From Escherichia phage vB_EcoM_G9062, in the sequence record NC_054920.1: DNA of 64,000 nucleotides, one strand, 5' to 3'. Positions 4,335-60,304 of the stretch are shown here, one piece after another (position 1 is the first letter of the stretch; each line of letters opens with the position of its first letter). The notes beneath the pieces are model-generated. The model worked only from the letters and a program-made list of their open reading frames with translations. It did no database searches and was not told the origin of the DNA. The position numbers were made by a program, and so were the translations under genes.

Positions 4335-4603
4335 TATTTAAAACGAATAGTCGAATCCTTGAAGAATAGTCCAGAACATACTGTTCCTTCTACTTTCTGC
4401 CCAGTAGGTCCAATAGCACGAAATCCAGTATGTTGGAAATCATTTTCAGAACAACCGAACCAGTTATATCCAGTGATTTCAATATTAGTAAAACCGCTTG
4501 AAGACAAAACTTTGGTTGCATTATCAGCATCAGTACATCCTACTAAAGACACTGCTAATACTAATGCCGCGATAGAACGATTAATATATTTCATAATTTT
4601 CAC
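4334..4603 (-). CDS. small lipoprotein (89 aa)
   Basis: signal peptide with lipobox LVGC. Confidence 0.6.
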   Translation of the reverse strand: MKIMKYINRSIAALVLAVSLVGCTDADNATKVLSSSGFTNIEITGYNWFGCSENDFQHTGFRAIGPTGQKVEGTVCSGLFFKDSTIRFK

Positions 4604-4971
4604 TTAAATTTAATGGCTTGAAGAAGACTAATAATTCTCAAGCGACTTCCTTCATCTTTAACTGTAAAAGAAAGAGGGTCACCAGATTTCATAGTGATAG
4701 TGCATTCAAAAGCAAAACCTTCGGGAACTTCTTCGAAGAAGTCAAATTCTTCATCATAAATTAGAACATTACTCTGAAAACTGTGAAGAATTTTTCCGTC
4801 ATTTCCAGATGCTGTACTAATCATTGTAACATTATTACCTTTCATATCTTCAACGATAAATTCGCTTGTAGATATTACAGCATTAATAGAACCATTCCTA
4901 TAAATAGCAGAAAATAGATATTTCTTTTCTTCACCTTCGCGAATGCGATATTTCTTACCGATTTTAAACAT
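4600..4971 (-). CDS. hypothetical protein (123 aa)
   Basis: minus-strand ORF with overlapping stop/start to neighbours. Confidence 0.5.
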   Translation of the reverse strand: MFKIGKKYRIREGEEKKYLFSAIYRNGSINAVISTSEFIVEDMKGNNVTMISTASGNDGKILHSFQSNVLIYDEEFDFFEEVPEGFAFECTITMKSGDPLSFTVKDEGSRLRIISLLQAIKFK

Positions 4972-4973
4972 AA

Positions 4974-5150
4974 TTACCCTTTAAGTAAGTCGTAAAATCC
5001 GCCATTCACATGCTTAGGGGCAGAGACTAACCGAATAGCAATCCGATGACAATCAGGACATACATCAGTATCTCTTTCAGAAATTTTCTTGATTTTTTCG
5101 TATTCTTTTGCGCAGTCTTTTGATTGACATTTATAATCATAAAGCGGCAT
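4974..5150 (-). CDS. zinc-ribbon small protein (58 aa), not in ORF track
   Basis: my translation MPLYDYKCQSKDCAKEYEKIKKISERDTDVCPDCHRIAIRL..., CxxC...CxxC pattern, fills gap between 4971 and 5153. Confidence 0.45.
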   Translation of the reverse strand: MPLYDYKCQSKDCAKEYEKIKKISERDTDVCPDCHRIAIRLVSAPKHVNGGFYDLLKG

Positions 5151-5152
5151 AA

Positions 5153-5566
5153 TTATTCCTTAAAGTGAGCTTTCAACATCTGATACAAGGACCATGCCTG
5201 TTCATCATTTTCAATAGTAACTTTCATTACAGGGAATTTAGATTGATCAGTTATCGGTGCAGATTCTTCCTGCTCTTCAGCTGCCTGGTATGGATTTTCA
5301 ACTTCATTAAAGAATTCAGCTTCATTCGATGAAAGCCAAATAAAATCTTCATCCAAAATATCTTTACCAGAAGATAGTACTAAATTTCCAGCAAATGACA
5401 TAATTTTAATAGGACGCCCAAGAGCATCCACATCTAAAATTTTAAAAGGATGCATACCTAAACGGCGTGCATAGATTCCGTTATCAGTATGGTCTTTAAT
5501 AAAATTTTCTTGAGCTTGTTTATTTTTAAATTGATACCATTTATTAACTTCAAATTTAATAGCCAT
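5153..5566 (-). CDS. hypothetical protein (137 aa)
   Basis: minus-strand ORF, acidic C-terminal half. Confidence 0.5.
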
Positions 5567-5781
5567 TAATAAATTTCCTTCCAGTAAGTTGTACCATCTT
5601 CAGTGATTTCACGAAATACACCGTAAATTGGTTGTTTATCCCCAACCTTTTCATACACATAAACCGAAGTCAAGTGAGTAAACTTAGCAGTGTGTTCCTT
5701 TTGAACTACTACCAAATCTGGATCGAATAACACATCTTCAAATTCGTCATTAGTGCAGTTCTGAACAATTTTACGTTTCAT
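5566..5781 (-). CDS. hypothetical protein (71 aa)
   Basis: minus-strand ORF, start overlaps stop of upstream gene. Confidence 0.5.
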
Positions 5782-5880
5782 TACAATTTCCTCGTTAATT
5801 GAACATTGGAGCGATGCGTTTCAGAAGAGTAGCAGCACCTTTGGCAAATTTTCCATTTTATTCTCCAAATTATTTTCTAT

Positions 5881-5923
5881 ATCAGTAGTTGATATTGATA
5901 TAGTACCATAATCAACTACTGAT
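5881..5923. repeat. perfect 13-bp inverted repeat with 17-nt spacer
   Basis: atcagtagttgat (5881-5893) and its reverse complement atcaactactgat (5911-5923). Confidence 0.7.
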
Positions 5924-5953
5924 GTATATAGTTTTATGAAAAAATTTTAAACT

Positions 5954-6445
5954 TTATGCATAACGAGCTTTGCTGTAGTGTTTAATCCAACTTTCAGGAA
6001 TGACTTTGTATGTTCCTAAAAATACCGCGTTGTATAACTTAACGCCATCTTCTACCCATTGATCAGTAATGTATGCACACATAGCGCGAGTACGCCGAGG
6101 AAGTGGTTGTCCACCTTCGATAAATTCAAACTCATAAGGAGCAATGAACTTAATAGCTTGACCGAGTTTCCACTTAAAGTCTACACCTACATGCGAAGTA
6201 TCAATCGTTTCAATTCCTTTAGCGGGAACAGCTTTCAAAAACGCAGATTCAAGAAATTTCGCGCGAACATAACCAAACTGAGGTTTAGACTTTCCATCTT
6301 TAGGAATGATACGCACTTTTACTTCAGAATCTTCATCTTTAACGCCGTGTTTAAGCTGAATGCTTACAATTTCGACCAATTTTCCTGCTGCTTTAGAACG
6401 GGATTTATCAGATACACGAGCAATTTCACCAATATTAATAATCAT
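5954..6445 (-). CDS. motB: MotB-like protein (163 aa)
   Basis: length and position match T4 motB as I recall it; shares C-terminal motif with the next ORF. Confidence 0.45.
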   Translation of the reverse strand: MIINIGEIARVSDKSRSKAAGKLVEIVSIQLKHGVKDEDSEVKVRIIPKDGKSKPQFGYVRAKFLESAFLKAVPAKGIETIDTSHVGVDFKWKLGQAIKFIAPYEFEFIEGGQPLPRRTRAMCAYITDQWVEDGVKLYNAVFLGTYKVIPESWIKHYSKARYA

Positions 6446-6490
6446 AGTTATCTCTCACTTGTTAAAAAGATTTTATACTCCACAGGACCA

Positions 6491-6519
6491 TTATACTCTG
6501 GTCCCAAGAGTTTGTAAAC
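6491..6519 (-). promoter_or_regulatory. T4-type early promoter
   Basis: minus-strand GTTTAC (6519-6514), 17 nt spacer, GTATAA. Confidence 0.5.
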
Positions 6520-6521
6520 TA

Positions 6522-7067
6522 TTAATTCAAAATAGCTACCACCGCACTACGAGGTACTACACTAAAATCTCCTGCATGGACAACGTTCAGAAGCTCAACA
6601 CCATCTTCAATCCACTGGTCTGTTACCCAACCACAGATAGGATTATCAAAAGGACGACGGATAGACACAGCAGCACACAATAGGTCTGTAGGGTCTTGTT
6701 CCTCAACTTCTTGGAACAGGATGAACTCATCTTCATAAACCAGGTTTTTCTTTATTTTGTTATTATCTAACCGGCGACCGTGGATGACGTAAGATTTGTC
6801 AAACCACTCACTTTTGGCAAATTCTTCAACAATAAATTCGCCTTCGCCAAAAACATCAGTCAGAGTTTTATGACCAGAAATCAAGGCATTAGTTTTAATT
6901 TTAGGTTCAACCAGTTTGTAGGTTTTGCCGATTTCAATAGCGGTAGTCATAGTAGGTTCCTTAATTTCCAGTGGTTTAACAGGGCATACATAAGTGCTTA
7001 CAACATCAAAATCAATCAGTTTAGCTACCGGATTTGGTATGTATTCAGGATTATAATTAAATTTCAT
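6522..7067 (-). CDS. hypothetical protein (181 aa), paralog of MotB-like ORF
   Basis: shared motif VTDQWIEDGVEL vs ITDQWVEDGVKL. Confidence 0.55.
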   Translation of the reverse strand: MKFNYNPEYIPNPVAKLIDFDVVSTYVCPVKPLEIKEPTMTTAIEIGKTYKLVEPKIKTNALISGHKTLTDVFGEGEFIVEEFAKSEWFDKSYVIHGRRLDNNKIKKNLVYEDEFILFQEVEEQDPTDLLCAAVSIRRPFDNPICGWVTDQWIEDGVELLNVVHAGDFSVVPRSAVVAILN

Positions 7068-7069
7068 AA

Positions 7070-7609
7070 TTATCTCATTTCAATAAAATCTACGAGTTCA
7101 GCATGCGATTTGCGGAACATTACTTGGTGCCCACCAATGATAACTTCATCTTCAGGAACTTCGTATACAGCGAGATAAAATCCTTTAGAAGATAATTCTT
7201 CCCGCTCTTCTCGTGTGAACCATCTCATCATATCATACTCACTAGCGAAAGCAAAATGATAAAGAGCTATAAACCATCCTGGAATATGATATTCTACTCC
7301 AACATAATCTTTCTTGAACTTAGTATTAATTACTATATTAGCGTTTTTAACTAATAGTTTATCTTCGTGTGGTAAAGGAATTCTTTTATTATTATCGCTA
7401 TGATGCATAAAATTAGGTCTGTCATAACCTACGTGTAATAGCCACTCTTCGCTCCATGGATCTATTATACTCCTGTACGGCGTTATTTGAACACAAAGAT
7501 TTCGACGTATTGTTATAGCATCTTCATAATCAAGAATACTAAACGATGATTCAACACGATAAATTTTCATTTTATTATCCTCAGTAGCTATGGTGTTATA
7601 ATACCACAA
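7070..7609 (-). CDS. hypothetical protein (179 aa)
   Basis: minus-strand ORF directly downstream of an early promoter. Confidence 0.5.
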   Translation of the reverse strand: MWYYNTIATEDNKMKIYRVESSFSILDYEDAITIRRNLCVQITPYRSIIDPWSEEWLLHVGYDRPNFMHHSDNNKRIPLPHEDKLLVKNANIVINTKFKKDYVGVEYHIPGWFIALYHFAFASEYDMMRWFTREEREELSSKGFYLAVYEVPEDEVIIGGHQVMFRKSHAELVDFIEMR

Positions 7610-7627
7610 CTAACCGAGGAAGTAAAC
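7597..7627 (-). promoter_or_regulatory. T4-type early promoter
   Basis: minus-strand GTTTAC (7627-7622), 18 nt spacer, TATTAT. Confidence 0.5.
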
Positions 7628-7633
7628 AACTTT

Positions 7634-8317
7634 TTATCGTTTTGTTGGAAGAGATAGAGGATCGCAATCTTCCTCTGATGGAACATCTTCAAGACCCATA
7701 GCATATCGCAAAGCGTACTTCATCATCAGGATGTCTTTCGCACAGTCATGAATAGAATCATGCGCAACGAATCCATCTAAAGTTCCTTTTGGAAGAGGAC
7801 ACGTGGTCATATCACGAACAAGCAGAAGTGCTTCAATTCTGGTACGAATATCACGCTGATTCCAGAATTTACATGGTTCTAACTTAAATGTGTCAAGTTC
7901 ATTCTCAGAAACACCATTAAGACGTTGAATATCACGAATGAGATCGACTAAAATTGGAAAATCAAACGACATTCCACGGCACCAGCCTTGAGATTTCCAA
8001 GGATCGATATTATGTGCATTGATGTAATCATTAAATTTCGCAATACCGTCGATAGTGCTTACATCTTCATCGGACGGTGCAATATTTTTTCGAGCTTCAG
8101 GAGACTGATTTTTCCACCATTCGATAGTGCTTTTAGTAAAAAGACGATGTCCTTTTTGGCTTTTTAAATCAAATTTGATTTTAATGCCGCGTGAAACTAA
8201 TTCATCAAATGTTTCAACTACTTCTGGGTTAGGGTCAAAAGCAATTACAGCTAAATCAATAACAGCTGCTTTTTCACCACTTCCCATTGTTTCAAAATCT
8301 ATAATAAAATCAAACAT
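7634..8317 (-). CDS. dexA: exonuclease A, DnaQ-like 3'-5' exonuclease (227 aa)
   Basis: 227 aa as T4 DexA; N-terminal FDFETMG exonuclease motif. Confidence 0.85.
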   Translation of the reverse strand: MFDFIIDFETMGSGEKAAVIDLAVIAFDPNPEVVETFDELVSRGIKIKFDLKSQKGHRLFTKSTIEWWKNQSPEARKNIAPSDEDVSTIDGIAKFNDYINAHNIDPWKSQGWCRGMSFDFPILVDLIRDIQRLNGVSENELDTFKLEPCKFWNQRDIRTRIEALLLVRDMTTCPLPKGTLDGFVAHDSIHDCAKDILMMKYALRYAMGLEDVPSEEDCDPLSLPTKR

Positions 8318-8592
8318 TAAATTTTCCTCGCTAAATCGCGAATTTGGCCTACAGTATAGTCTTGAATATAAACTTTATTAATAGGTTCATCAATAAATTT
8401 TGCCATAGATTCAATATCTTTTTGCATCTCTTCAAGACTGTATATTATCTTTAAAGCTTTTTCGCGAATAGTAATATTTTCAGGACCAGAATTTTTCTCA
8501 ATGACAGCTTTAACATTTGTCATAAGAGATTTAAACTGACACCAACTTAATTCAATCATTAATAATCGCCTTATAAAGATAGCTAATTTCAC
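8317..8592 (-). CDS. hypothetical protein (91 aa)
   Basis: minus-strand ORF between dexA and dda. Confidence 0.45.
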   Translation of the reverse strand: MKLAIFIRRLLMIELSWCQFKSLMTNVKAVIEKNSGPENITIREKALKIIYSLEEMQKDIESMAKFIDEPINKVYIQDYTVGQIRDLARKI

Positions 8593-8812
8593 CTAAAACA
8601 TAATCACTGATTGTGACAGTTTTCACTTCACCACAAAAGAATTCTAACGCAATTAAATCTCGTTCAATTTCTTCTAATTGAAGCATCAACTTACTAGATT
8701 CAATTTTTACAGTTTCACGATTTTTACTATAAGCTATTTCATAAATTTCGCTCACTTTATCTTGAAGCAGATAAAACTGGTCTTTAGTTATTTCCACGAA
8801 TAGCTTCCTCAA
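8552..8812 (-). CDS. hypothetical protein (86 aa)
   Basis: minus-strand ORF between dexA and dda. Confidence 0.45.
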   Translation of the reverse strand: MRKLFVEITKDQFYLLQDKVSEIYEIAYSKNRETVKIESSKLMLQLEEIERDLIALEFFCGEVKTVTISDYVLGEISYLYKAIIND

Positions 8813-9044
8813 ATTTAATTAGTAATTTACAGACACTTTCATCTAGTGTAATTACCGTATCTGTATTACTGTGATATGATTGTTTTTCAATTCGTTTAAT
8901 TGCTAATATAGTATCACTTATAAGATAAAGCTTATGAAGGAGCTCAGCTCCTGTTACCATAACATCGAGATTATCTTGCTTATTAGTATGCTTCCTTATA
9001 CCATCTATTAGACGATTTAAATATTTTGAATTGATGTTAATCAT
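8784..9044 (-). CDS. hypothetical protein (86 aa)
   Basis: minus-strand ORF between dexA and dda. Confidence 0.45.
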   Translation of the reverse strand: MININSKYLNRLIDGIRKHTNKQDNLDVMVTGAELLHKLYLISDTILAIKRIEKQSYHSNTDTVITLDESVCKLLIKFEEAIRGNN

Positions 9045-9050
9045 ATATCC

Positions 9051-10370
9051 TCACACATAAAATACGTCATAACGACCACGGGTAACACCAACATAAAGAA
9101 GTTGTTGAGCCAATTCAGCATCTGCATAATGAATACAAGGTGTATAGATGAAAGCACGGTCTACAGACATACCCTGCGCTTTATGGAATGTTGATGCAGG
9201 AAGTGCTTTCACTTTACTAAACTGTGATTTAGCATCCCAAAAATCACTCCATGGAGCTTTTCCACCCTTATTCCAGTTTTTATAAGTTTCTGCTGTTTTA
9301 CCTAAAAATAGGTTAAACTTATATAGCTCTTCATCAGATGAAATTATTTTAATCTTTTCACGATAATATTCATCATCGCCGTAAGTTTCTACTGTTAAAT
9401 CCCAATGACGAATTAAGTATTCTCCAGAAACACCACGAGCTTTAACAAATGTTGATGTATACTCTGCTTCTATAATACGAACTAATTGTCCGTTATTAAA
9501 AATAATTTCTGACACAGGCTTTCCATCAATTTTATATGTTTTAATTAATGGTTCCTGCATTACAATAATTTCACCGACAATAAAATCTTTATCAGTTTCA
9601 AAAATCTTTTTACGAATAATGCTATTTAACTTGTCAACAGATTTATTCGTAAATGCCATTACGCGATTTTCAAACAAATCATCTAGAGATTTGACGATTG
9701 AAAAATAATTTACCATAAAATCGCGTAAAGCGGTATCACCAGTAAATCCACGTACTCCATGCCCGTCAACAACTTTATCATAAATCCACTTACCGTTACG
9801 AACGTCAGTAGCTACATCAATAATAGGAGCATTACTGCGTTTAACTTCAGTGAGTTCACACTGATAAAAATCTTTATGTGTAAAGAATGGACTGATATAA
9901 GCAGTATTTTCTCCTGGATCAACAGGTCTAATTTGCTTATTATCACCTATTCCAATTATAGTACACCAAGGTGGAATAGTTGAAAGCAGAATTTTAAATA
10001 GCTTTCTATCATACATTGACACTTCGTCGCAGATTAATACCCTGCATTTAGCTAAATCTGGTACTTCCTTCTGTTCAAAAAGAACGTTTTCTTCATACGT
10101 AACTGGGTTAATTTTAAGAATACTGTGAATAGTACTCGCTTCTTTCCCCGACAGTTTTGAAAGAATCTTTTTAGCTGCATGTGTAGGAGCTGCTAAAATA
10201 ATACCAGTTTCACCCGTAGATATTAAAGCTTCAATGATGAACTTAGTAAGAGTAGTCTTACCAGTACCAGCAGGTCCATTAATAGTTACATGATGTTTCT
10301 TTTCTTTAATAGCCCTCATAACGATGTTAAAGGCATTTTTCTGGCCTTCTGTCAAATCATCAAATGTCAT
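9051..10370 (-). CDS. dda: Dda DNA helicase, SF1 (439 aa)
   Basis: 439 aa as T4 Dda; Walker A GPAGTGKTT; Walker B LICDEVSM. Confidence 0.9.
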   Translation of the reverse strand: MTFDDLTEGQKNAFNIVMRAIKEKKHHVTINGPAGTGKTTLTKFIIEALISTGETGIILAAPTHAAKKILSKLSGKEASTIHSILKINPVTYEENVLFEQKEVPDLAKCRVLICDEVSMYDRKLFKILLSTIPPWCTIIGIGDNKQIRPVDPGENTAYISPFFTHKDFYQCELTEVKRSNAPIIDVATDVRNGKWIYDKVVDGHGVRGFTGDTALRDFMVNYFSIVKSLDDLFENRVMAFTNKSVDKLNSIIRKKIFETDKDFIVGEIIVMQEPLIKTYKIDGKPVSEIIFNNGQLVRIIEAEYTSTFVKARGVSGEYLIRHWDLTVETYGDDEYYREKIKIISSDEELYKFNLFLGKTAETYKNWNKGGKAPWSDFWDAKSQFSKVKALPASTFHKAQGMSVDRAFIYTPCIHYADAELAQQLLYVGVTRGRYDVFYV

Positions 10371-51395: not shown

Positions 51396-51923
51396 TTATG
51401 CGAGTACCGTCTTTAACCGTTCTTCAAACTTCCGAAGAGTATTCTGGCGTTCAGCTCTTTGCTTTTTGTAAGTTTCAATACGCTCTGAAATGAGAGTGTA
51501 TCGTTCATTTACTGATTCTTTCATAAAATCAGGAATTTCACGAGAAGCTTTAATCTCGTCAAATTTATCAATAACTGCTTGCTCTTCAGCAATTAAGTTA
51601 TCATACATCAAAATATCTTTCTTGATGAACTCAATATCTTCTTGAGTTACACGAGATAATTTAGATGCTTTATCCTTTTTGTACTGTTCGTTAGTATCAC
51701 GAGACCAGTGTAATGTACGATTTTTATTCGTATTCTTGTAAATTTCTACAATACCAATCTCATCGATAATAACGATCCAATTCCAACGAGATTTGTAAAT
51801 TTGTCCTCCGTCAACCGTGATTTCACCTCCGATTGAGATGTCATTAAAGAACTTGCTTTGTGCTTCAGATTTAAATTTACCATCGTTGTAATTTACCAGG
51901 TTGAAAATATCTTTAGCGTTCAT
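51396..51923 (-). CDS. hypothetical protein (175 aa)
   Basis: minus-strand ORF with conserved GGAG leader downstream of promoter. Confidence 0.5.
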   Translation of the reverse strand: MNAKDIFNLVNYNDGKFKSEAQSKFFNDISIGGEITVDGGQIYKSRWNWIVIIDEIGIVEIYKNTNKNRTLHWSRDTNEQYKKDKASKLSRVTQEDIEFIKKDILMYDNLIAEEQAVIDKFDEIKASREIPDFMKESVNERYTLISERIETYKKQRAERQNTLRKFEERLKTVLA

Positions 51924-51950
51924 TTTGTGTTCCTCCGTAGTTGATAGTTG

Positions 51951-51981
51951 TATAGTACCACAGAGGAACAGTCTTGTAAAC
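51951..51981 (-). promoter_or_regulatory. T4-type early promoter with conserved leader
   Basis: minus-strand GTTTAC (51981-51976), 16 nt spacer, GGTACTATAC, AACTATCAAC leader. Confidence 0.55.
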
Positions 51982-51983
51982 CA

Positions 51984-52298
51984 CTAAAAGAAACTTCTTT
52001 CACAATTTTTTCCACTGAACCATGCGCTTACCGCTTTCTTAGTCTCAGGAGCAGTGTTATCCATAAACCATTCAAAGGCAGCCTTTTTATGATTCTGGAG
52101 GGCTTCTCGGGCTTTAATCTGCTCACGGTCTATTAACACTAACATATGAGCCTTTCTTGTCACCATGGGCTTCTTATGATTTTTTGAATACTCCCAGTCA
52201 TTTGTCCATCGCATTGTCGTTGCGAACTTAAATACTGCTTCTTTAATTTTAGTTTCGTAAATTTCACGAGCCTTTGAGTATAACATCATTACCTCCAT
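51984..52298 (-). CDS. hypothetical protein (104 aa)
   Basis: minus-strand ORF. Confidence 0.45.
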   Translation of the reverse strand: MEVMMLYSKAREIYETKIKEAVFKFATTMRWTNDWEYSKNHKKPMVTRKAHMLVLIDREQIKAREALQNHKKAAFEWFMDNTAPETKKAVSAWFSGKNCERSFF

Positions 52299-52388
52299 TC
52301 ACCAGTTTAATTCTAGTCATCTTTTTAATGGCAGTCCATATAATCTATTTCTGAACTGCCTTTTTGTCATAGAAGTCCTCTTATGAAT

Positions 52389-53357
52389 TTATTTCAGAAG
52401 AGTAACCTCAGCGATTTCTTCCCAACCGTTTTTGTCGGTCATAATAAAGTCAGCAAGATAAAGAGCAGTACGCAGTGAAACATTGCGTAAACGATTAACA
52501 TTAACTTTCATCCATGATAATGCTTTATAAGTTTCTTCATCAGAAAGACCGCGCTTTTGCATCATGTCGGTTGAAAGAATAACATCTTCAACCCTGACCA
52601 TAATTTCTTCATTAGTGTGAACACCCAAATCTAAATAAACTGAGCGGGACACTAATGCTTGTAAATGTGGAGCAAGTTTAGTACCGCGGTCTAATTCGCG
52701 GTCAATGTCAACGTTTGTGATAAAAACAATCGTTCCTTTAAATTCAAACTCACGGTCAATGCCTTTTTCTTCTAAGTAAGAAGATGCAGTGCTCCAGCAG
52801 ACTTTACGGGTCTCTCCAGTGTCCAGAGCAGCTTTTAGAAGATTAAGAATGTCCATATCAGAGAAAACATCCACATCATCAATCAAAAGGACAGAGTTCT
52901 CTTCACGATTATACCAAAGCTGCTCATAAAGACCAATACCAGAGATTTTACCATTAATGCTTTTATATTCAATGTATCCAATATCGTTTGCTTTATTTAA
53001 AGCTTTATCTAAAGAATACGTTTTACCAATACCTGCTGCGCCAGAGATAATTAATGAACGAATATTTCCATTAATAATACCATTCGTCATCATTCCCATA
53101 ACATTAAATCTTTTATTAATGCGGGTTTTCATATCTTCATATGATTCTTTAACTTCTTCAACTTTTACACCATCATATGAAATATCTGATTTGTAAACCC
53201 AAACACCACGACGTTTACCGTCAATTTCAACAAAAACTTTACCATCTCCTTGTGCATCTACCGGAGCATTATCTGGGAACCATTCGCCTAAGAGCTCAAA
53301 AGTTCCAGAGATTTCTTTACCGAAGTAGATACCCTTATTGATAGTTACAGTTTTCAT
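52389..53357 (-). CDS. P-loop ATPase (about 322 aa)
   Basis: Walker A GAAGIGKTY, Walker B VLLIDDVD; start MKTVTINKG after conserved GGAGAAUAAA leader. Confidence 0.55.
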   Translation of the reverse strand: MKTVTINKGIYFGKEISGTFELLGEWFPDNAPVDAQGDGKVFVEIDGKRRGVWVYKSDISYDGVKVEEVKESYEDMKTRINKRFNVMGMMTNGIINGNIRSLIISGAAGIGKTYSLDKALNKANDIGYIEYKSINGKISGIGLYEQLWYNREENSVLLIDDVDVFSDMDILNLLKAALDTGETRKVCWSTASSYLEEKGIDREFEFKGTIVFITNVDIDRELDRGTKLAPHLQALVSRSVYLDLGVHTNEEIMVRVEDVILSTDMMQKRGLSDEETYKALSWMKVNVNRLRNVSLRTALYLADFIMTDKNGWEEIAEVTLLK

Positions 53358-53391
53358 TTTATTCTCCAATCTCACATTTGTTTTGATAGGG

Positions 53392-53423
53392 TAATAGTAT
53401 CACACTACTACCCTTTTGTAAAC
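53392..53423 (-). promoter_or_regulatory. T4-type early promoter
   Basis: minus-strand GTTTAC (53423-53418) with GATACTATTA element. Confidence 0.45.
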
Positions 53424-53426
53424 AAT

Positions 53427-53690
53427 TTATTTTAACGTTCGCCAAATTTTTACTGCTTCACGGCGAGATACTTCTACAGCTCCAAGTTCTACAGCTTTTT
53501 GGCGTCGGCGAGCGTGTAAGTCATAATGTTTAATGCGTTTATCTTGAAACCAAGAACGTTTCATTCCTATTGCTTCTGCCATTTCATGAAGCTCTTCAAT
53601 ATCTCCATCAGTGAACATATGACAATTTTTAGTTGGATGACCGCGAAGTTTCCATCCATGATTCATTAAAACATCTACGTAAACTGTCAT
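53427..53690 (-). CDS. small conserved protein (87 aa), DUF4031-like
   Basis: pattern VYVD...GWKLRG...HYDL resembles a prophage-associated domain from memory. Confidence 0.4.
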   Translation of the reverse strand: MTVYVDVLMNHGWKLRGHPTKNCHMFTDGDIEELHEMAEAIGMKRSWFQDKRIKHYDLHARRRQKAVELGAVEVSRREAVKIWRTLK

Positions 53691-54007
53691 TGATTCTTCT
53701 CCAAATAAGTTTCGATAATTTTCTGAGCGAGATAAACTGCATTATCTTCAGTTGCATCTTCTAAGAAACTTTCAAAACACTCTGAAATTTCTTCTGTATC
53801 AATCAACTTTTTTACTTCAATTGGTGTAATTTTCATTTTGTTTTTCCGTTTAAGTGTTTGTTTTGATAGTTGTATAGTACCATAAAGCTTTATGCTTGTA
53901 AACAATTTTGTGAAAAATTTTTGAAATAAAAAAAGGGAGCCCGAAGGCTCCCTATCATTTATAATAACTTCGGTGGTTTTCAAGATAAACCCTCTCAAGG
54001 AAGTCAT
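53687..54007 (-). CDS. hypothetical protein (106 aa or shorter)
   Basis: minus-strand ORF; start uncertain. Confidence 0.4.
   Translation of the reverse strand: MTSLRGFILKTTEVIINDREPSGSLFLFQKFFTKLFTSIKLYGTIQLSKQTLKRKNKMKITPIEVKKLIDTEEISECFESFLEDATEDNAVYLAQKIIETYLEKNQ
53873..53903 (-). promoter_or_regulatory. T4-type early promoter with conserved leader
   Basis: minus-strand GTTTAC (53903-53898), spacer, GGTACTATAC, AACTATCAAA leader. Confidence 0.5.
53935..53952 (-). terminator. intercistronic hairpin, C(UUCG)G loop
   Basis: plus gggagcccgaaggctccc. Confidence 0.45.
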
Positions 54008-54941
54008 CCCAAAAACCCATGTCTACTTTTTGCTGCATACCGTTCTTAGAAGCTTCAGTAGATGCTGCTTCTACTTGATCGACCACATCTTCCAAAAACT
54101 CTTGAACCGTTTTAAATGGATGTTTACCCAACTTCACGTCGAGAATAAATGGAGCATCTTGGAGTGGATAAACCAAGTCACCAGTTTTGTAAATTTCCAA
54201 TAGTTGGAGTCCACCACGGCAAGCATGGCTCAGAGCTTTCCAGTCAATACCTTCATTGGCTTCGGCCTTACGAGCACGTTCACCGTATTCAGCATCTAAT
54301 TTGTTCAGTGACTGCTTAAGCTCAATAAGAGAAAGCGTTGTCTGATATTTACGACCCAACACTGTGTAGAACGTCTGTGGGCCTGTTTTCTCATGATTAT
54401 GGAACACCCATTCACAGAATTCGTTTTCTGGAAGACGATGCTTAATATCTTCAACTTTAGTACGACGCTGCTTAATAGAACCATCTTCTTGGTAATCAAC
54501 CCATTGCTCAGGGATTTGATTAACTACTTTCAATACATCACGTAATGCAGCCAAACGAGAACCCTTAACGCCGTATTTAGAAGCTTGCTTACGGACATAT
54601 CCTAAATAGGATTTCATGTTAGTCGTATAAAAACGAGAACGGTTGTCTTGAATAAACTTCCACACATCAGGCAAATCAGATTTAACCACTAGTTCAGGTG
54701 GAGTGTGAAGCATATCTAACGCTACAGTTTCACCATCTGCTGCTAATTTAAAGAAATATTTAAGACTGTATAGTTCATGGTCAATATCATCTTTAGTGTT
54801 TTTAGATGATGTGTTGTTAGTGTTTTTACTCATGTGCTCTTTAACATTTCCGATAAGAATATCACGAGCAGGAGGAACAAAGATTTCTTTAAAATCTACA
54901 TCAGATTCTGGGGGTAGAAGTTCCATAAAGATGACTACCAA
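53955..54941 (-). CDS. hypothetical protein (328 aa or shorter)
   Basis: minus-strand ORF; probable start MELLPPESD. Confidence 0.5.
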   Translation of the reverse strand: MVVIFMELLPPESDVDFKEIFVPPARDILIGNVKEHMSKNTNNTSSKNTKDDIDHELYSLKYFFKLAADGETVALDMLHTPPELVVKSDLPDVWKFIQDNRSRFYTTNMKSYLGYVRKQASKYGVKGSRLAALRDVLKVVNQIPEQWVDYQEDGSIKQRRTKVEDIKHRLPENEFCEWVFHNHEKTGPQTFYTVLGRKYQTTLSLIELKQSLNKLDAEYGERARKAEANEGIDWKALSHACRGGLQLLEIYKTGDLVYPLQDAPFILDVKLGKHPFKTVQEFLEDVVDQVEAASTEASKNGMQQKVDMGFWDDFLERVYLENHRSYYK

Positions 54942-54965
54942 AATAGCTTTTCATTACTGTTTTCA

Positions 54966-55427
54966 TCATTCAGCCTTATATTCAATAACAGGACATACTT
55001 TAGCTTTACGAGCTTTTAAAAATTCAACGATAATCGATTTCTTGGGTTGAATAGGAGGTAAACCTTTATACGCCCTATCAATATTTTCTACGTGTAAAGC
55101 ATAATCCTTTTTCCATTTATAATCTTTATATTTTTCACGCAGTTGTGCAGGAATAACAAATGAACCGATAATAAGTAAAACAAGCAAAATGGCAAGTATA
55201 AATGCTGATGGAATAAGAGTCCATAAACTACCAAAAATAAGCCATTTCTGTATGATTTCTGCGCAGATGATAGTTAGACCTACGAGTATAGTACATCCGA
55301 AAAAAGAAACGAAAAATGTAGGAATAACAATAGACCAAAAATACGCGCACAGTGTCTTAGGTCGTTTCCATTCATCATTAAACATTTTGAATAATTTATA
55401 ATGCCAAGAGTTTTCATTAATAATCAT
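54966..55427 (-). CDS. membrane protein (153 aa)
   Basis: at least three hydrophobic helices. Confidence 0.5.
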   Translation of the reverse strand: MIINENSWHYKLFKMFNDEWKRPKTLCAYFWSIVIPTFFVSFFGCTILVGLTIICAEIIQKWLIFGSLWTLIPSAFILAILLVLLIIGSFVIPAQLREKYKDYKWKKDYALHVENIDRAYKGLPPIQPKKSIIVEFLKARKAKVCPVIEYKAE

Positions 55428-55429
55428 AA

Positions 55430-55951
55430 TTATCCTTTCATTGAAGGTGTAACAGTTGTTAAATACTTAATCATAGCTTCAGCTTCTGATTTTGATAATG
55501 AAATTTCTCCATTGTTTTGACGAATAGAAATAAAATCCGGATGACGGTCACCACCAGCTTTTAAAACACACATATAAGTATCAGTTTCATCTTCAATATT
55601 TGAAATGATTGAAGCAGTTCCACATGAATGTGGTTTTTGATAAATCAATACAGCTTTTCTTCCACCGTTTGACTGTTCATAAACTTTTAACACATCAAAC
55701 AAATCACTTCTTTTATCAATAGCTAAGATGTTGTTTTCATCTTCAATGTTAAATCCTTCGGATACTTCATAAAGCGTTACCCATAAATCACCTATATCGA
55801 TAGTAGCATTTTCCTTTCCATGACTTTCAAGAGCATGACAAATTTTCTTGATTTCATCATAACTCATTTTAATAATATCATCTCCTTGAATAAGGAAGAT
55901 GTCATTTTTAAATTCAACACGAATTAAACCGCTTCCACTTGAAATAAACAT
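55430..55951 (-). CDS. hypothetical protein (173 aa)
   Basis: minus-strand ORF. Confidence 0.5.
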   Translation of the reverse strand: MFISSGSGLIRVEFKNDIFLIQGDDIIKMSYDEIKKICHALESHGKENATIDIGDLWVTLYEVSEGFNIEDENNILAIDKRSDLFDVLKVYEQSNGGRKAVLIYQKPHSCGTASIISNIEDETDTYMCVLKAGGDRHPDFISIRQNNGEISLSKSEAEAMIKYLTTVTPSMKG

Positions 55952-55957
55952 ATTTCC

Positions 55958-56524
55958 TCACTTTGAAATCATAGTTGGAATGGCAGAATCAAGATAAGTC
56001 TTTAGCGCAATAGCTTCGTCTTTTGTAAATGTAACAATATGTGCTCGAAAATCGTCAATTTGGCGAATAGTTAAGACATCTCCTTCTTCATAACATTTTG
56101 ATACATTTAAAACAGTTTCATCATTCTGATCGCACTGATCGCAAGCGTTAGTAATAATAGCATTGCAATTTTTGAGCCATTTTAAACTATGTTTTCTTTC
56201 ATTAGAATAATAAAAATATTTAATCTTAGCTATAAAACTATCCCAATGGATAACTGATAAACACATTGACTCACTTTTAATATTAAATCCTGGGCATGAA
56301 GAATAAAAATGAATTTTGTGCTCATCATTGATGCTTACTATTTTATCAGTATAAGGATATTCAATTTGGATTAAATGAACGATTTCACTAGGCGTAAAAT
56401 ATAGCATATCGTCTTCTTGCGTCAAACGATACATGTTATTTACTTTTTCTATAGCCAATTCACCAAAAAGCGGACTAACTTCTAATACTAATCGTTTCAT
56501 ATTGATTCTCTTCGACTCACTCAC
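55958..56524 (-). CDS. hypothetical protein (188 aa)
   Basis: minus-strand ORF; CDQCDQ motif. Confidence 0.5.
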   Translation of the reverse strand: MSESKRINMKRLVLEVSPLFGELAIEKVNNMYRLTQEDDMLYFTPSEIVHLIQIEYPYTDKIVSINDEHKIHFYSSCPGFNIKSESMCLSVIHWDSFIAKIKYFYYSNERKHSLKWLKNCNAIITNACDQCDQNDETVLNVSKCYEEGDVLTIRQIDDFRAHIVTFTKDEAIALKTYLDSAIPTMISK

Positions 56525-56660
56525 AATTACATACTCCTTTGAATAATATCAATAATGTTGTTCACCAGATTATAAGTAAACATTGGGTAATTATATTGAA
56601 TCATCACATACACAACAAACAAAACTTTCATTCTCTTCTCCTTGACCGTTGACAAGATTA

Positions 56661-56688
56661 CTATACCATAACCTTGTCAACTTGTAAA
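56661..56688 (-). promoter_or_regulatory. T4-type early promoter
   Basis: minus-strand GTTTAC (56688-56683), 15 nt spacer, GGTATAG. Confidence 0.45.
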
Positions 56689-56854
56689 CCATTAAATGAC
56701 GTTTTCAATAAAATTCTGAAGCTTTGTGTGAGCATCAACCATAATTTTCATTTCTTCCTTTGCGAAAGCTGTACCTCTTTCCCGAGCAGAATACTCATAG
56801 TCAGAAACTGCATTAGCATATTCTTCAATTAGCTTCATTAAAAACATTTGCTTT

Positions 56855-57085
56855 TCAGTTTTCATTATTCCACCTAATCATTTCAAGATATTGAACTAAC
56901 TTAGCTTTGGATTTATCCAAATCCTTTTTAGCTGCTTCTATACCGTCGTATGAATATCCTTCACAGTGCTCAACTGCCAATTGATATGAATCTATTTCAA
57001 TATCACGTGCTAATTTAATGATTTTTTCAAACTGTTCACGTGTTAGCATACTAAACTCTCGTATTATGATCAATAATTTCATCAA
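56855..57085 (-). CDS. hypothetical protein (76 aa)
   Basis: minus-strand ORF. Confidence 0.4.
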   Translation of the reverse strand: MMKLLIIIREFSMLTREQFEKIIKLARDIEIDSYQLAVEHCEGYSYDGIEAAKKDLDKSKAKLVQYLEMIRWNNEN

Positions 57086-57290
57086 GAAACATATCTAACG
57101 CTTCTAAAGCATTATCAACTTTAGCTTCAAATTTTTCAATACCTTTATTTGCAATGCCTGCCGAAAACCAAGCAAAGTCACTAAGTTCCTCATCTGCTTT
57201 GCGAATTAAAGCTACCAATTCTTTAATTTTATCTGCTTGTTCAATTCTAGTCATTATTCCACCACATATGAAAGAGAGAATATTGCACAC
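57051..57290 (-). CDS. hypothetical protein (79 aa)
   Basis: minus-strand ORF. Confidence 0.4.
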
Positions 57291-57487
57291 GCCATATGAG
57301 TTGCAGCTTCATCACACATATCATAACGTTTCTTAAGAAGTTCTACAAGTTCTTCACTAGTAACTTCATCCATGTCGACGAAAAAATCACCATTAATGAT
57401 GACGTAGATATTTCCTTCTTGATTGAGTGCTTCAATTTTCATGATGTTCTCCTCTTTATCCGATAGTTGTATAGTACCACAGCTCAA
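57254..57487 (-). CDS. hypothetical protein (77 aa or shorter)
   Basis: minus-strand ORF downstream of promoter. Confidence 0.4.
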
Positions 57488-57500
57488 ACGGAAAGTAAAC
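57470..57500 (-). promoter_or_regulatory. T4-type early promoter with conserved leader
   Basis: minus-strand GTTTAC (57500-57495), 16 nt spacer, GGTACTATAC, AACTATCGG leader. Confidence 0.55.
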
Positions 57501-57516
57501 CGGCAAAATGAAAAAA

Positions 57517-57532
57517 GTCTCCCGAAGGAGAC
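57517..57532 (-). terminator. intercistronic hairpin, C(UUCG)G loop
   Basis: plus gtctcccgaaggagac. Confidence 0.45.
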
Positions 57533-57537
57533 TAATG

Positions 57538-57924
57538 TTATTCGAGGGAAAGAAGATACTTACTCTGGTAAAACATTCCAGTAATATCATCTATCGTGCT
57601 TTGAATGGCTGGAGGCATTTCTTTATAAATGCTGTTAGATTGATCTAGTATGCGATCAATCATTTTAATTGTGTCGGTAGGAAGTTTACTGGCATCTGGA
57701 ATTGAAGGCGTGTATTTTCTACCAGAATACCCCAAATATTGCTCACCAAATTTATCAATCAAATCTGGCAACTCGGAGAAAATAAAATCGTATGCTTTGT
57801 GTCTAGCATAACTTTTAGTTTCAAAATGTGCAGAATGAAAATAAGCTTGTGCAGCCATTAATAAACCTAAGTATTCATCTGCCTTTGAAGGTTTTCCACT
57901 TTGTGAAAAGTCGCTGAATTTCAT
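57538..57924 (-). CDS. hypothetical protein (128 aa)
   Basis: minus-strand ORF. Confidence 0.5.
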
Positions 57925-59637: not shown

Positions 59638-59855
59638 GTAACCTTTAAGCAGTATTCTTCTACATGCTGTTTACGACCTTTCTTATCAATAAAGGTATAT
59701 TCAACGAATGTTCCAATGTAGTCTTTATCTACATCATGCGGACTATTAATTGGACATTTAGTACGGCAAATGCGTTCCCATTGACGAATAATTACTGCCT
59801 TATTCTTTGGGTCATATGGATGTGGATAATGTATATTCATAATAACGGTTCCCAA
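59628..59855 (-). CDS. hypothetical protein (75 aa)
   Basis: minus-strand ORF. Confidence 0.45.
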   Translation of the reverse strand: MGTVIMNIHYPHPYDPKNKAVIIRQWERICRTKCPINSPHDVDKDYIGTFVEYTFIDKKGRKQHVEEYCLKVTWL

Positions 59856-60304
59856 TCAACAATCACAATTTCTAATTTAGAGGAATATGTATCTAAAATC
59901 CCCTCAATAATATCCCAGTTCCCTTTACCTATGCCTGCACCAATCCTAGGCATATAGATTGTAGGTTTAATCAGTTTATTTTCACCAAACTCATTTAATT
60001 CTAACATACAATTCATTAAAGCGGAATACTCAAAATTTGGCCCTGGTTGAAATTGAGTATAAAGGTTGAAGCAATACGCTTTATGAGTCCTAAAATATTT
60101 TTCATAGACTGAGTAAGAACCGAGTTTAGTTACATCACCCCATTCAGTCTGTAATTTATCAGCTTCCAAAATTTTAGGGAAAGCTTTGGTTAATTGACCC
60201 GCTACGCCTGAACCCATAGTATGAAAACAATTGCATCCATGCGCAATATTTTTACCTTCAGCGAAAAGGGCGACAATATCGCCCTTGATATATTTTACAA
60301 TCAT
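59837..60304 (-). CDS. macro-domain protein (155 aa), putative ADP-ribose binding/hydrolase
   Basis: motif IAHGCNCFHTMGSGVAGQL (compare VNAAN...GGGVAGAI) and RIGAGIGKG glycine loop. Confidence 0.55.
   Translation of the reverse strand: MIVKYIKGDIVALFAEGKNIAHGCNCFHTMGSGVAGQLTKAFPKILEADKLQTEWGDVTKLGSYSVYEKYFRTHKAYCFNLYTQFQPGPNFEYSALMNCMLELNEFGENKLIKPTIYMPRIGAGIGKGNWDIIEGILDTYSSKLEIVIVDWEPLL

Follow-up and report, generated by a model that had tools for sequence, protein, structure and literature searches.

The nrdC.10-mobD.1 interval of Escherichia phage vB_EcoM_G9062 as a probable mosaic of separately promoted early genes

We examined positions 52389-56524 of a 64,000-nucleotide stretch of the genome of Escherichia phage vB_EcoM_G9062 (NC_054920.1; the whole stretch is hereafter called the window), a block of genes that a sequence-only reading had described as early, hypervariable, of unknown function and a plausible home for host-takeover or anti-defence functions. 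By the annotations of GenBank record MK327936, phage fFiEco06 and T4, the block is the nrdC.10-to-mobD.1 interval, which lies entirely on the minus strand, upstream of nrdC.9 and downstream of mobD.2-rI-tk. It is probably a segment of the Tequatrovirus hyperplastic region in which three independently promoted early units form a mosaic, with no functional system among them. What, then, is new? The block itself is already known: every gene has been catalogued in T4-group genomes, and the mode of cassette movement has been described previously. As a discovery it carries little weight, and its value lies in its by-products, namely the reading of nrdC.11 as frameshifted, an idea about repair by the nrdC.11 product and a small DUF4031 protein as a target for study. 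The cassette that encodes this last protein, orf49-DUF4031, is the only element of the block with real discovery potential.

Over a 5-kb region around the block, identity is 100% to Escherichia phage vB_EcoM_G2540 (MK327936, Tequatrovirus) and 97-98% to hundreds of T4-group phages, and the gene order is colinear with T4 and fFiEco06. The corresponding T4 interval (nrdC.10 - nrdC.11 - mobD - mobD.1; NC_000866 54343-57828) has the same order and strand, with DNA identities to the window of 96.6% for nrdC.10, 95.8% for nrdC.11 together with the terminator and promoter, and 88% for mobD.1/mobD.2. T4 lacks the 493-bp orf49-DUF4031 cassette that the window carries; it has the HNH homing endonuclease gene mobD where the window has a membrane protein gene and a second y05I-like gene; and its nrdC.11 is intact, whereas the window copy is frameshifted. 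Hypervariability is a fair description of the cassette and of the mobD place, which vary relative to T4, but not of nrdC.10 (~1,310 records) or nrdC.11, which are conserved. The open reading frames (ORFs) named in the sequence-only reading are all real, minus-strand and correctly placed, each with independent family support; left unmentioned were a 49-residue ORF (53687-53836) and two y05I-like paralogs (55430-55951 and 55958-56500).

Promoters, stem-loops and an inserted cassette

Why three units? Motifs of the form TTTACA-N17-TACTAT with an upstream TG are found at 53902-53874 and 53422-53394, with more sites at 51980-51952 and 57499-57471, and they fit the description of these genes as early-promoter-driven. 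The T4-type promoter at 53874-53902 (minus strand) drives orf49-DUF4031, and its 29-mer is identical to the single promoter that serves nrdC.10 in T4 (locus L003, 11384-11356). A second promoter of the same type, at 53394-53422 (minus strand; TTTACAAAAGGGTAGTAGTGTGATACTAT), precedes and drives nrdC.10 in the window; it fits TTTACW-N17-TAYWAT and bounds the inserted cassette on the right, the segment 53370-53862 being an insertion relative to T4. An intrinsic terminator at 53934-53953 (minus strand; AGGGAGCC-TTCG-GGCTCCCT and then a T-run), which the MK327936 record also annotates, ends the mobD.2-nrdC.11 unit, and a second strong terminator hairpin stands at 57533-57516. The first unit would run from mobD.2 through mobD.1, the y05I paralog, the membrane protein gene and nrdC.11 to the terminator; the second would consist of orf49 and DUF4031, and the third of nrdC.10.

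Mobile regulatory cassettes of the promoter-early stem-loop (PeSL) type are known from T4-type hyperplastic regions (PMC2839356, PMC4122927), and TTTACW-N17-TAYWAT is the consensus of T4-group PeSL promoters (PMC4122927). The terminator at 53953-53934 and the promoter downstream of it (53902-53874) form a motif of this type; a second promoter follows at 53422-53394, and the 493-bp segment between is absent from T4. As in the described cases, a stem-loop and a TTTACW-N17-TAYWAT promoter flank an ORFan cassette whose presence differs among close relatives and whose location differs among genera. The difference is that recombination at the motifs is here deduced only from flanking repeats and indel boundaries. 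The orf49-DUF4031 pair would accordingly be a two-gene PeSL-type cassette that has been inserted behind T4's nrdC.10 promoter and ahead of the nrdC.10 leader. Its distribution is that of an optional passenger: ~157 T4-group records carry this DUF4031, compared with ~501 that carry the same nrdC.10 allele. The pair, together with its 4-nt overlap, is kept in three genera, including Jiaodavirus and Gelderlandvirus (orf49 homologs of 37-47% identity), and in these two, where a stem-loop and early promoters border it as well, it lies ~1.6-2 kb downstream of nrdC.10.

An early promoter followed by a conserved leader (ACTATCAAAACAAA) is present in four copies within 6 kb, at 51941-52000, 53377-53402, 53857-53922 and 57460-57519. 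Recombination between these promoter-leader repeats is a likely route for cassette shuffling. Across 51500-57800, Rfam and tRNA scans returned nothing but a sub-threshold match to the L20 leader at 53921-54082 (27.7 bits, E=0.027; gathering score 58.7), which overlaps the 3' end of nrdC.11 and the terminator and was judged to be chance.

The frameshifted nrdC.11 copy

The sequence-only reading listed a 328-residue protein of unknown function. An ORF is indeed present at 53955-54941, but it is the remainder of a frameshifted nrdC.11 (53955-54966, minus strand), the gene for a Pol-beta nucleotidyltransferase of the RlaP family (PF10127). Against a cutoff of 23 bits, the window ORF scores 28.3, T4 46.6 and fFiEco06 44.1. 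The protein is 336 residues long in T4 and fFiEco06, with the start MKTV.KSYFGSHLYGTSTPESDVDF. The window copy keeps the native ATG, at 54966, but loses its frame after codon 18 through an extra C in the run at 54910-54914 and meets a premature TGA at 54903-54901; the run is five C in the window, four C in fFiEco06 and CTCC in T4. What remains is an ORF in the +1 frame (54941/54926-53955), the 3' part of the gene. FGSHLYG falls in the 21-codon ORF (54966-54901) and SDVDF in the +1 frame ORF, while the two are contiguous in T4 and fFiEco06, so that in the window no single polypeptide holds both h-G-[GS] and [DE]-h-[DE]. With the G-S motif and the catalytic D-x-D motif parted by the extra C, this genome's copy, to judge by its sequence, is either inactive or mis-sequenced. 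The GenBank record MK327936 annotates a 323-residue truncated remainder as the gene.

Is the phage or the sequence at fault? We see an even chance that the extra base arose in sequencing or assembly of the homopolymer and that the real phage encodes an intact 336-residue enzyme; otherwise the mutation is genuine, private and inactivating. The base lies in a C5 run, and a 61-nt query centered on that run has an exact match in only one of 494 phage records, all others being one base shorter. It is also the only single-base indel in coding sequence over 11 kb aligned to fFiEco06, where another single-base difference is likewise homopolymeric (an A-run at 53928), and the rest of nrdC.11 retains 96-97% protein identity to intact orthologs with no other damage. 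However, homopolymer slippage is also the commonest real mutation, and nrdC.11 is dispensable in T4, from which nrdC.11-mobD.3 can be lost (PMC9825161). Programmed +1 frameshifting at CCC-AGA could restore the same residues; it was rejected, since no other record has the site. With either origin of the extra base, the 328-residue protein is best read as frameshifted nrdC.11, and it shows how one homopolymer base can make an apparent novel ORF.

The DUF4031 protein and its partner

The 87-residue protein encoded at 53427-53690 (minus strand) is correctly described as DUF4031-like: it matches PF13223 with E=8e-22 (77.7 bits against 25.6) over profile positions 7-74 of 76. Upstream, and overlapping its start by 4 nt, lies orf49 (53687-53836, minus strand; phrog_6888, E=5.5e-31), which encodes a 49-residue acidic helical product with 12 D/E and 5 K/R. 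The DUF4031 family counts 7,357 representatives at E<=1e-3, and over 148 of these D6, H24, D28, H35, W47, Q49, H55-Y56-D57 and R63 are 97-100% conserved. These conserved His and Asp residues suggest an enzyme, most likely a small one that acts on nucleotides or nucleic acid. Two more specific identities were considered and rejected: LAGLIDADG matches to the AlphaFold2 (AF2) model had a template-modeling (TM) score of ~0.35 and were taken as chance, and the H-x-T/S motifs of 2H phosphoesterases are absent from the sequence.

Bacterial relatives gave one recurrent setting. In a survey of 60 bacterial DUF4031 loci (genome contigs), 11 proteobacterial loci from several genera have MazG_C co-oriented with DUF4031. 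There DUF4031 heads a three-gene operon, followed by a 430-residue MazG plus MazG_C protein (PF18722, E=1e-81) and then a 223-residue protein. Within this set, median identity is 64% for DUF4031 and 49% for MazG, and we therefore regard the DUF4031-MazG linkage as old. An Xre regulator, a thymidylate-synthase-like gene, a papain-like peptidase and a CapP/CapH-like regulator pair lie near the operon. The islands (L124, L125, L127, L132, L135, L138, L139, L141, L147, L148 and L150, ~4600-10000 in each) have a common layout, with a divergent Xre-HTH gene beside the DUF4031 operon and, on the opposite strand, a 280-residue thymidylate-synthase-like gene, a papain-like peptidase, an M78 ImmA/IrrE (CapP-like) peptidase and an HTH protein. 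Such an island may be an undescribed nucleotide-centered conflict or modification system; MazG and MazG-C are among predicted, unvalidated defence domains (PMC13092281). The DUF4031 domain of these operons (e.g. L124, L135, L139) is 35-40% identical to the phage protein. However, the phage gene has no MazG neighbor, and its partner, the 49-residue acidic ORF, is absent from the bacterial loci. The context points to nucleotide-centered chemistry or conflict as a candidate setting and does not fix the function of the phage protein.

Taken together, orf49-DUF4031 could be a promoter-flanked mobile module whose main product has an unrecognized mini-enzyme fold with a His/Asp site, acts on nucleotides or nucleic acids, is kin to the first gene of the bacterial MazG/MazG-C operons, and neutralizes such systems or alters the nucleotide pool, with orf49 as its regulator or inhibitor. 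We offer this tentatively; as a whole it is rather unlikely. Several results count against the simpler reading of DUF4031 as a small His/Asp enzyme. Although the AF2 model is confident (predicted local distance difference test score, pLDDT, 93), Foldseek found no significant match in the PDB (best E 0.4) and only other DUF4031 proteins in BFVD. Among the 150 best DUF4031 representatives, the ten longest have no second Pfam domain, and in phages and prophages the DUF4031 neighborhoods are heterogeneous.

Could the protein instead be a small DNA-binding regulator, built on a strand-helix element like that of ribbon-helix-helix (RHH) proteins, with acidic orf49 as its antagonist? This too seems doubtful. 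The protein is basic (17 K/R against 12 D/E), its partner is acidic and translationally coupled to it, it stands first in the bacterial operon beside an Xre regulator, and residues 23-57 have a weak profile match to a designed RHH-like protein (E=0.38). That match is not significant, however, and the near-invariance of D, H, H-Y-D and Q on adjacent strands, across over 140 diverse members, looks more like a catalytic or metal site.

Whichever activity it has, DUF4031 is a tractable small target: ~7,400 representative clusters, no confident PDB fold match, catalytic-looking residues and a link to MazG/MazG-C in Proteobacteria. It has no functional literature, and the term itself occurs in one phage-genome paper only.

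nrdC.10, the block as a whole and tRNA repair

The description of the block as genes of unknown function fails for its two large genes, nrdC.11 and nrdC.10, since the former encodes an RlaP nucleotidyltransferase and the latter an AAA+ ATPase. The Walker A/B ATPase of 322 residues noted in the sequence-only reading is NrdC.10 (52389-53357, minus strand; phrog_1250, E=7e-166), which has a beta-rich N-terminal domain (residues 1-62), an AAA+ core (Walker A 106-113, Walker B 157-163) and, in addition, a helical lid. The two Walker sequences, GAAGIGKT (A) and LLIDDVD (B), conform to GxxGxGK[ST] and hhhhD[DE] and are invariant in 28 homologs. The AF2 model (pLDDT 88.7) has the AAA+ fold, with the beta domain, an alpha/beta core and the lid, and all 181 of its Foldseek matches in the PDB at E<=1e-3 are AAA+ proteins, spread across dynein, NSF, RFC/Rad24, ORC, RuvB, NtrC and MoxR. 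With clamp-loader, RuvB, NtrC and MoxR type ATPases it shares core, lid and Walker motifs (Foldseek probability 1.0 to many), whereas its N-terminal beta domain is unique.

By tblastn, nrdC.10 is present in ~1,310 phage records, from Tevenvirinae and the T4-like phages of Acinetobacter, Aeromonas and Vibrio to jumbo phages such as PA5oct and Atu_ph07. It is among the most widely retained accessory genes of T4-like phages, and the label hypervariable is wrong for it. What does the company it keeps suggest? We sampled 80 IMG/VR viral loci (homologs 30-78% identical, forming 30 clusters at 70% identity). Co-oriented neighbors included a UvsW-type helicase in 52 loci, a UvsY-like mediator in 34, RecA/UvsX in 31 and gp32 in 20, across many clusters. 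Only the three closest loci have nrdC.11 alongside nrdC.10 and the other 77 do not, which is evidence against an obligatory partnership of the two. Elsewhere, nrdC.10 is flanked by nrdA/B/C and the topoisomerase II medium subunit gene in a Vibrio Schizotequatrovirus and by motA and asiA in Aeromonas phage B614, and it is two genes away from nrdC.11 in Acinetobacter phage Acj61. In a broad clade of uncultured phages (L016-L091; e.g. L020 1004-11309, L070 1795-8260), the homolog stands between UvsY/UvsX/gp32 and UvsW, and in 23 loci of that clade an unannotated conserved 361-residue gene lies directly downstream of it.

These neighborhoods give weak-to-moderate support to a role for nrdC.10 in DNA metabolism, and NrdC.10 would most likely remodel a DNA-protein complex in replication or recombination. 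Some observations argue the other way. The UvsW/UvsY synteny comes mainly from the one broad uncultured clade, may be inherited gene order, and is absent in PA5oct, Aeromonas phage B614 and T4. Nor does the model assign the protein to a named AAA+ clade, with E ~1e-5 and a TM score of ~0.4 to all of them, and no Pfam AAA family scores above its gathering cutoff (best AAA_14, 22.5 bits against 27).

Upstream of nrdC.11 lie genes that complete the first unit. The 153-residue membrane protein (54966-55427, minus strand; phrog_944, membrane protein, E=1e-49) is absent from T4. It had been described as a three-helix membrane protein, and its hydropathy is in keeping with this: a single hydrophobic block at residues 25-98 has room for about three transmembrane helices and precedes a basic C-terminal tail. 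Homologs of 31-32% identity are found upstream of nrdC.11 in three viral loci (L012-L014), and membrane-protein genes are annotated there in Acj61 as well, a likeness by annotation only. Next come a 173-residue y05I-like protein (55430-55951, minus strand), a diverged mobD.1 paralog that is absent from T4, and mobD.1 itself (y05I family; 55958-56500, minus strand), which encodes 180 residues and is 88% identical to T4 at the DNA level. The two proteins share 26% identity, and both have the two domains of the family: PF24449 and PF24448 match the 173-residue protein with E=6e-33 (113.9 bits) and E=2e-23 (82.9 bits), and the 180/188-residue protein with E=4e-39 (133.7 bits) and E=1e-21 (77.5 bits). 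Relative to T4 and fFiEco06, mobD.1 carries an in-frame 9-bp tandem duplication (CTGATCGCA) at ~56126-56134 that gives CDQCDQ. Pfam labels y05I a 'putative transcription factor', and nothing further on its function was found; the literature held no functional papers on nrdC.10 or mobD.1/y05I.

Annotation of these genes suffers from their names. In GenBank records (L002, L093, hits H2-H25 and H81-H95), nrdC.5-nrdC.11, including the AAA+ ATPase, are labeled 'thioredoxin', and mobD.1 and mobD.4 are labeled 'molybdopterin-guanine dinucleotide biosynthesis protein MobD'; in MK327936, the 34-residue mobD.2 is labeled 'putative nucleotidyltransferase'. Outside the block, downstream of tk, a homolog of tk.4 (59837-60304) is annotated in MK327936 as a macro-domain protein.

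Do the genes of the block act together? A coherent host-takeover or anti-defence island is very improbable. The genes are all early, co-oriented and dispensable in the laboratory, the loss of nrdC.11-mobD.3 from T4 being a case in point; the region is plastic, a counter-defence role for RlaP is plausible, and the bacterial DUF4031 operon has the predicted defence domains MazG/MazG-C. However, three separate promoters and a strong terminator lie inside the block, the cassette is absent from T4 and most relatives, and nrdC.10 occurs without nrdC.11 in nearly all of the sampled viral loci, as well as in phages of Aeromonas and Vibrio. No PADLOC-DB defence or anti-defence model matched any of the seven proteins at E<=0.01; an NCBIfam scan of the seven gave no meaningful match, and PDB sequence searches with single proteins and profiles gave nothing significant for NrdC.10, DUF4031 or NrdC.11. 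An RNA-repair module of nrdC.10, DUF4031 and nrdC.11 (an ATPase, a small phosphoesterase-like enzyme and an end-filling nucleotidyltransferase) is scarcely credible: nrdC.11 and nrdC.10 are close in Tequatrovirus, L012-L014, Gelderlandvirus and Acj61, and DUF4031 has conserved His/Asp, but a terminator and separate promoters divide the genes, DUF4031 is optional, placed elsewhere in other genera and devoid of 2H motifs, and distant nrdC.10 homologs have no nrdC.11 nearby and sit among recombination genes instead.

The earlier judgment that no definable system is present agrees with the mosaic reading, in that the transcription units are separate, their linkage is broken in other genera and PADLOC finds no match. 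As a home for host-takeover or anti-defence functions, the block is plausible only for nrdC.11, through tRNA repair, and speculative for DUF4031; the neighborhoods of nrdC.10 favor DNA metabolism.

The case for nrdC.11 comes from a December 2025 preprint on two Pseudomonas RlaPs (bioRxiv 10.64898/2025.12.29.696909), which add one or two nucleoside monophosphates to RNA 3'-OH ends, prefer damaged RNAs and are needed to regain aminoacylation of over-trimmed, religated tRNA. Its authors propose RlaP as an antidote to nucleotide-excising nucleases such as RloC, and list T4 NrdC.11 as an RlaP member in a separate cluster, with its function given as unknown (bioRxiv 10.64898/2025.12.29.696909). Intact NrdC.11 orthologs have the Pfam family (PF10127) and the Pol-beta G-S and D-x-D motifs in common with the P. 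fluorescens and P. aeruginosa enzymes. By analogy, NrdC.11 would extend the 3'-OH of nuclease-trimmed tRNA by one or two nucleotides, and the phage kinase/phosphatase and RNA ligase could then rebuild a functional tRNA, countering anticodon nucleases such as RloC. The analogy has its weak points: NrdC.11 falls in cluster 5 of the sequence similarity network and the characterized Pseudomonas RlaPs in cluster 1a, and, unlike the context that gave RlaP its name, NrdC.11 is not adjacent to RtcB or an RNA ligase, none (RtcB, Rnl) being annotated within 13 kb in MK327936 or 18 kb in T4. A counter-defence role by tRNA repair, alongside T4 Pnkp and Rnl1, is nonetheless plausible. Should T4-group NrdC.11 replace the nucleotides that RloC and similar anticodon nucleases remove, the classic T4 route of tRNA repair by Pnkp and Rnl1 would thereby be complete.

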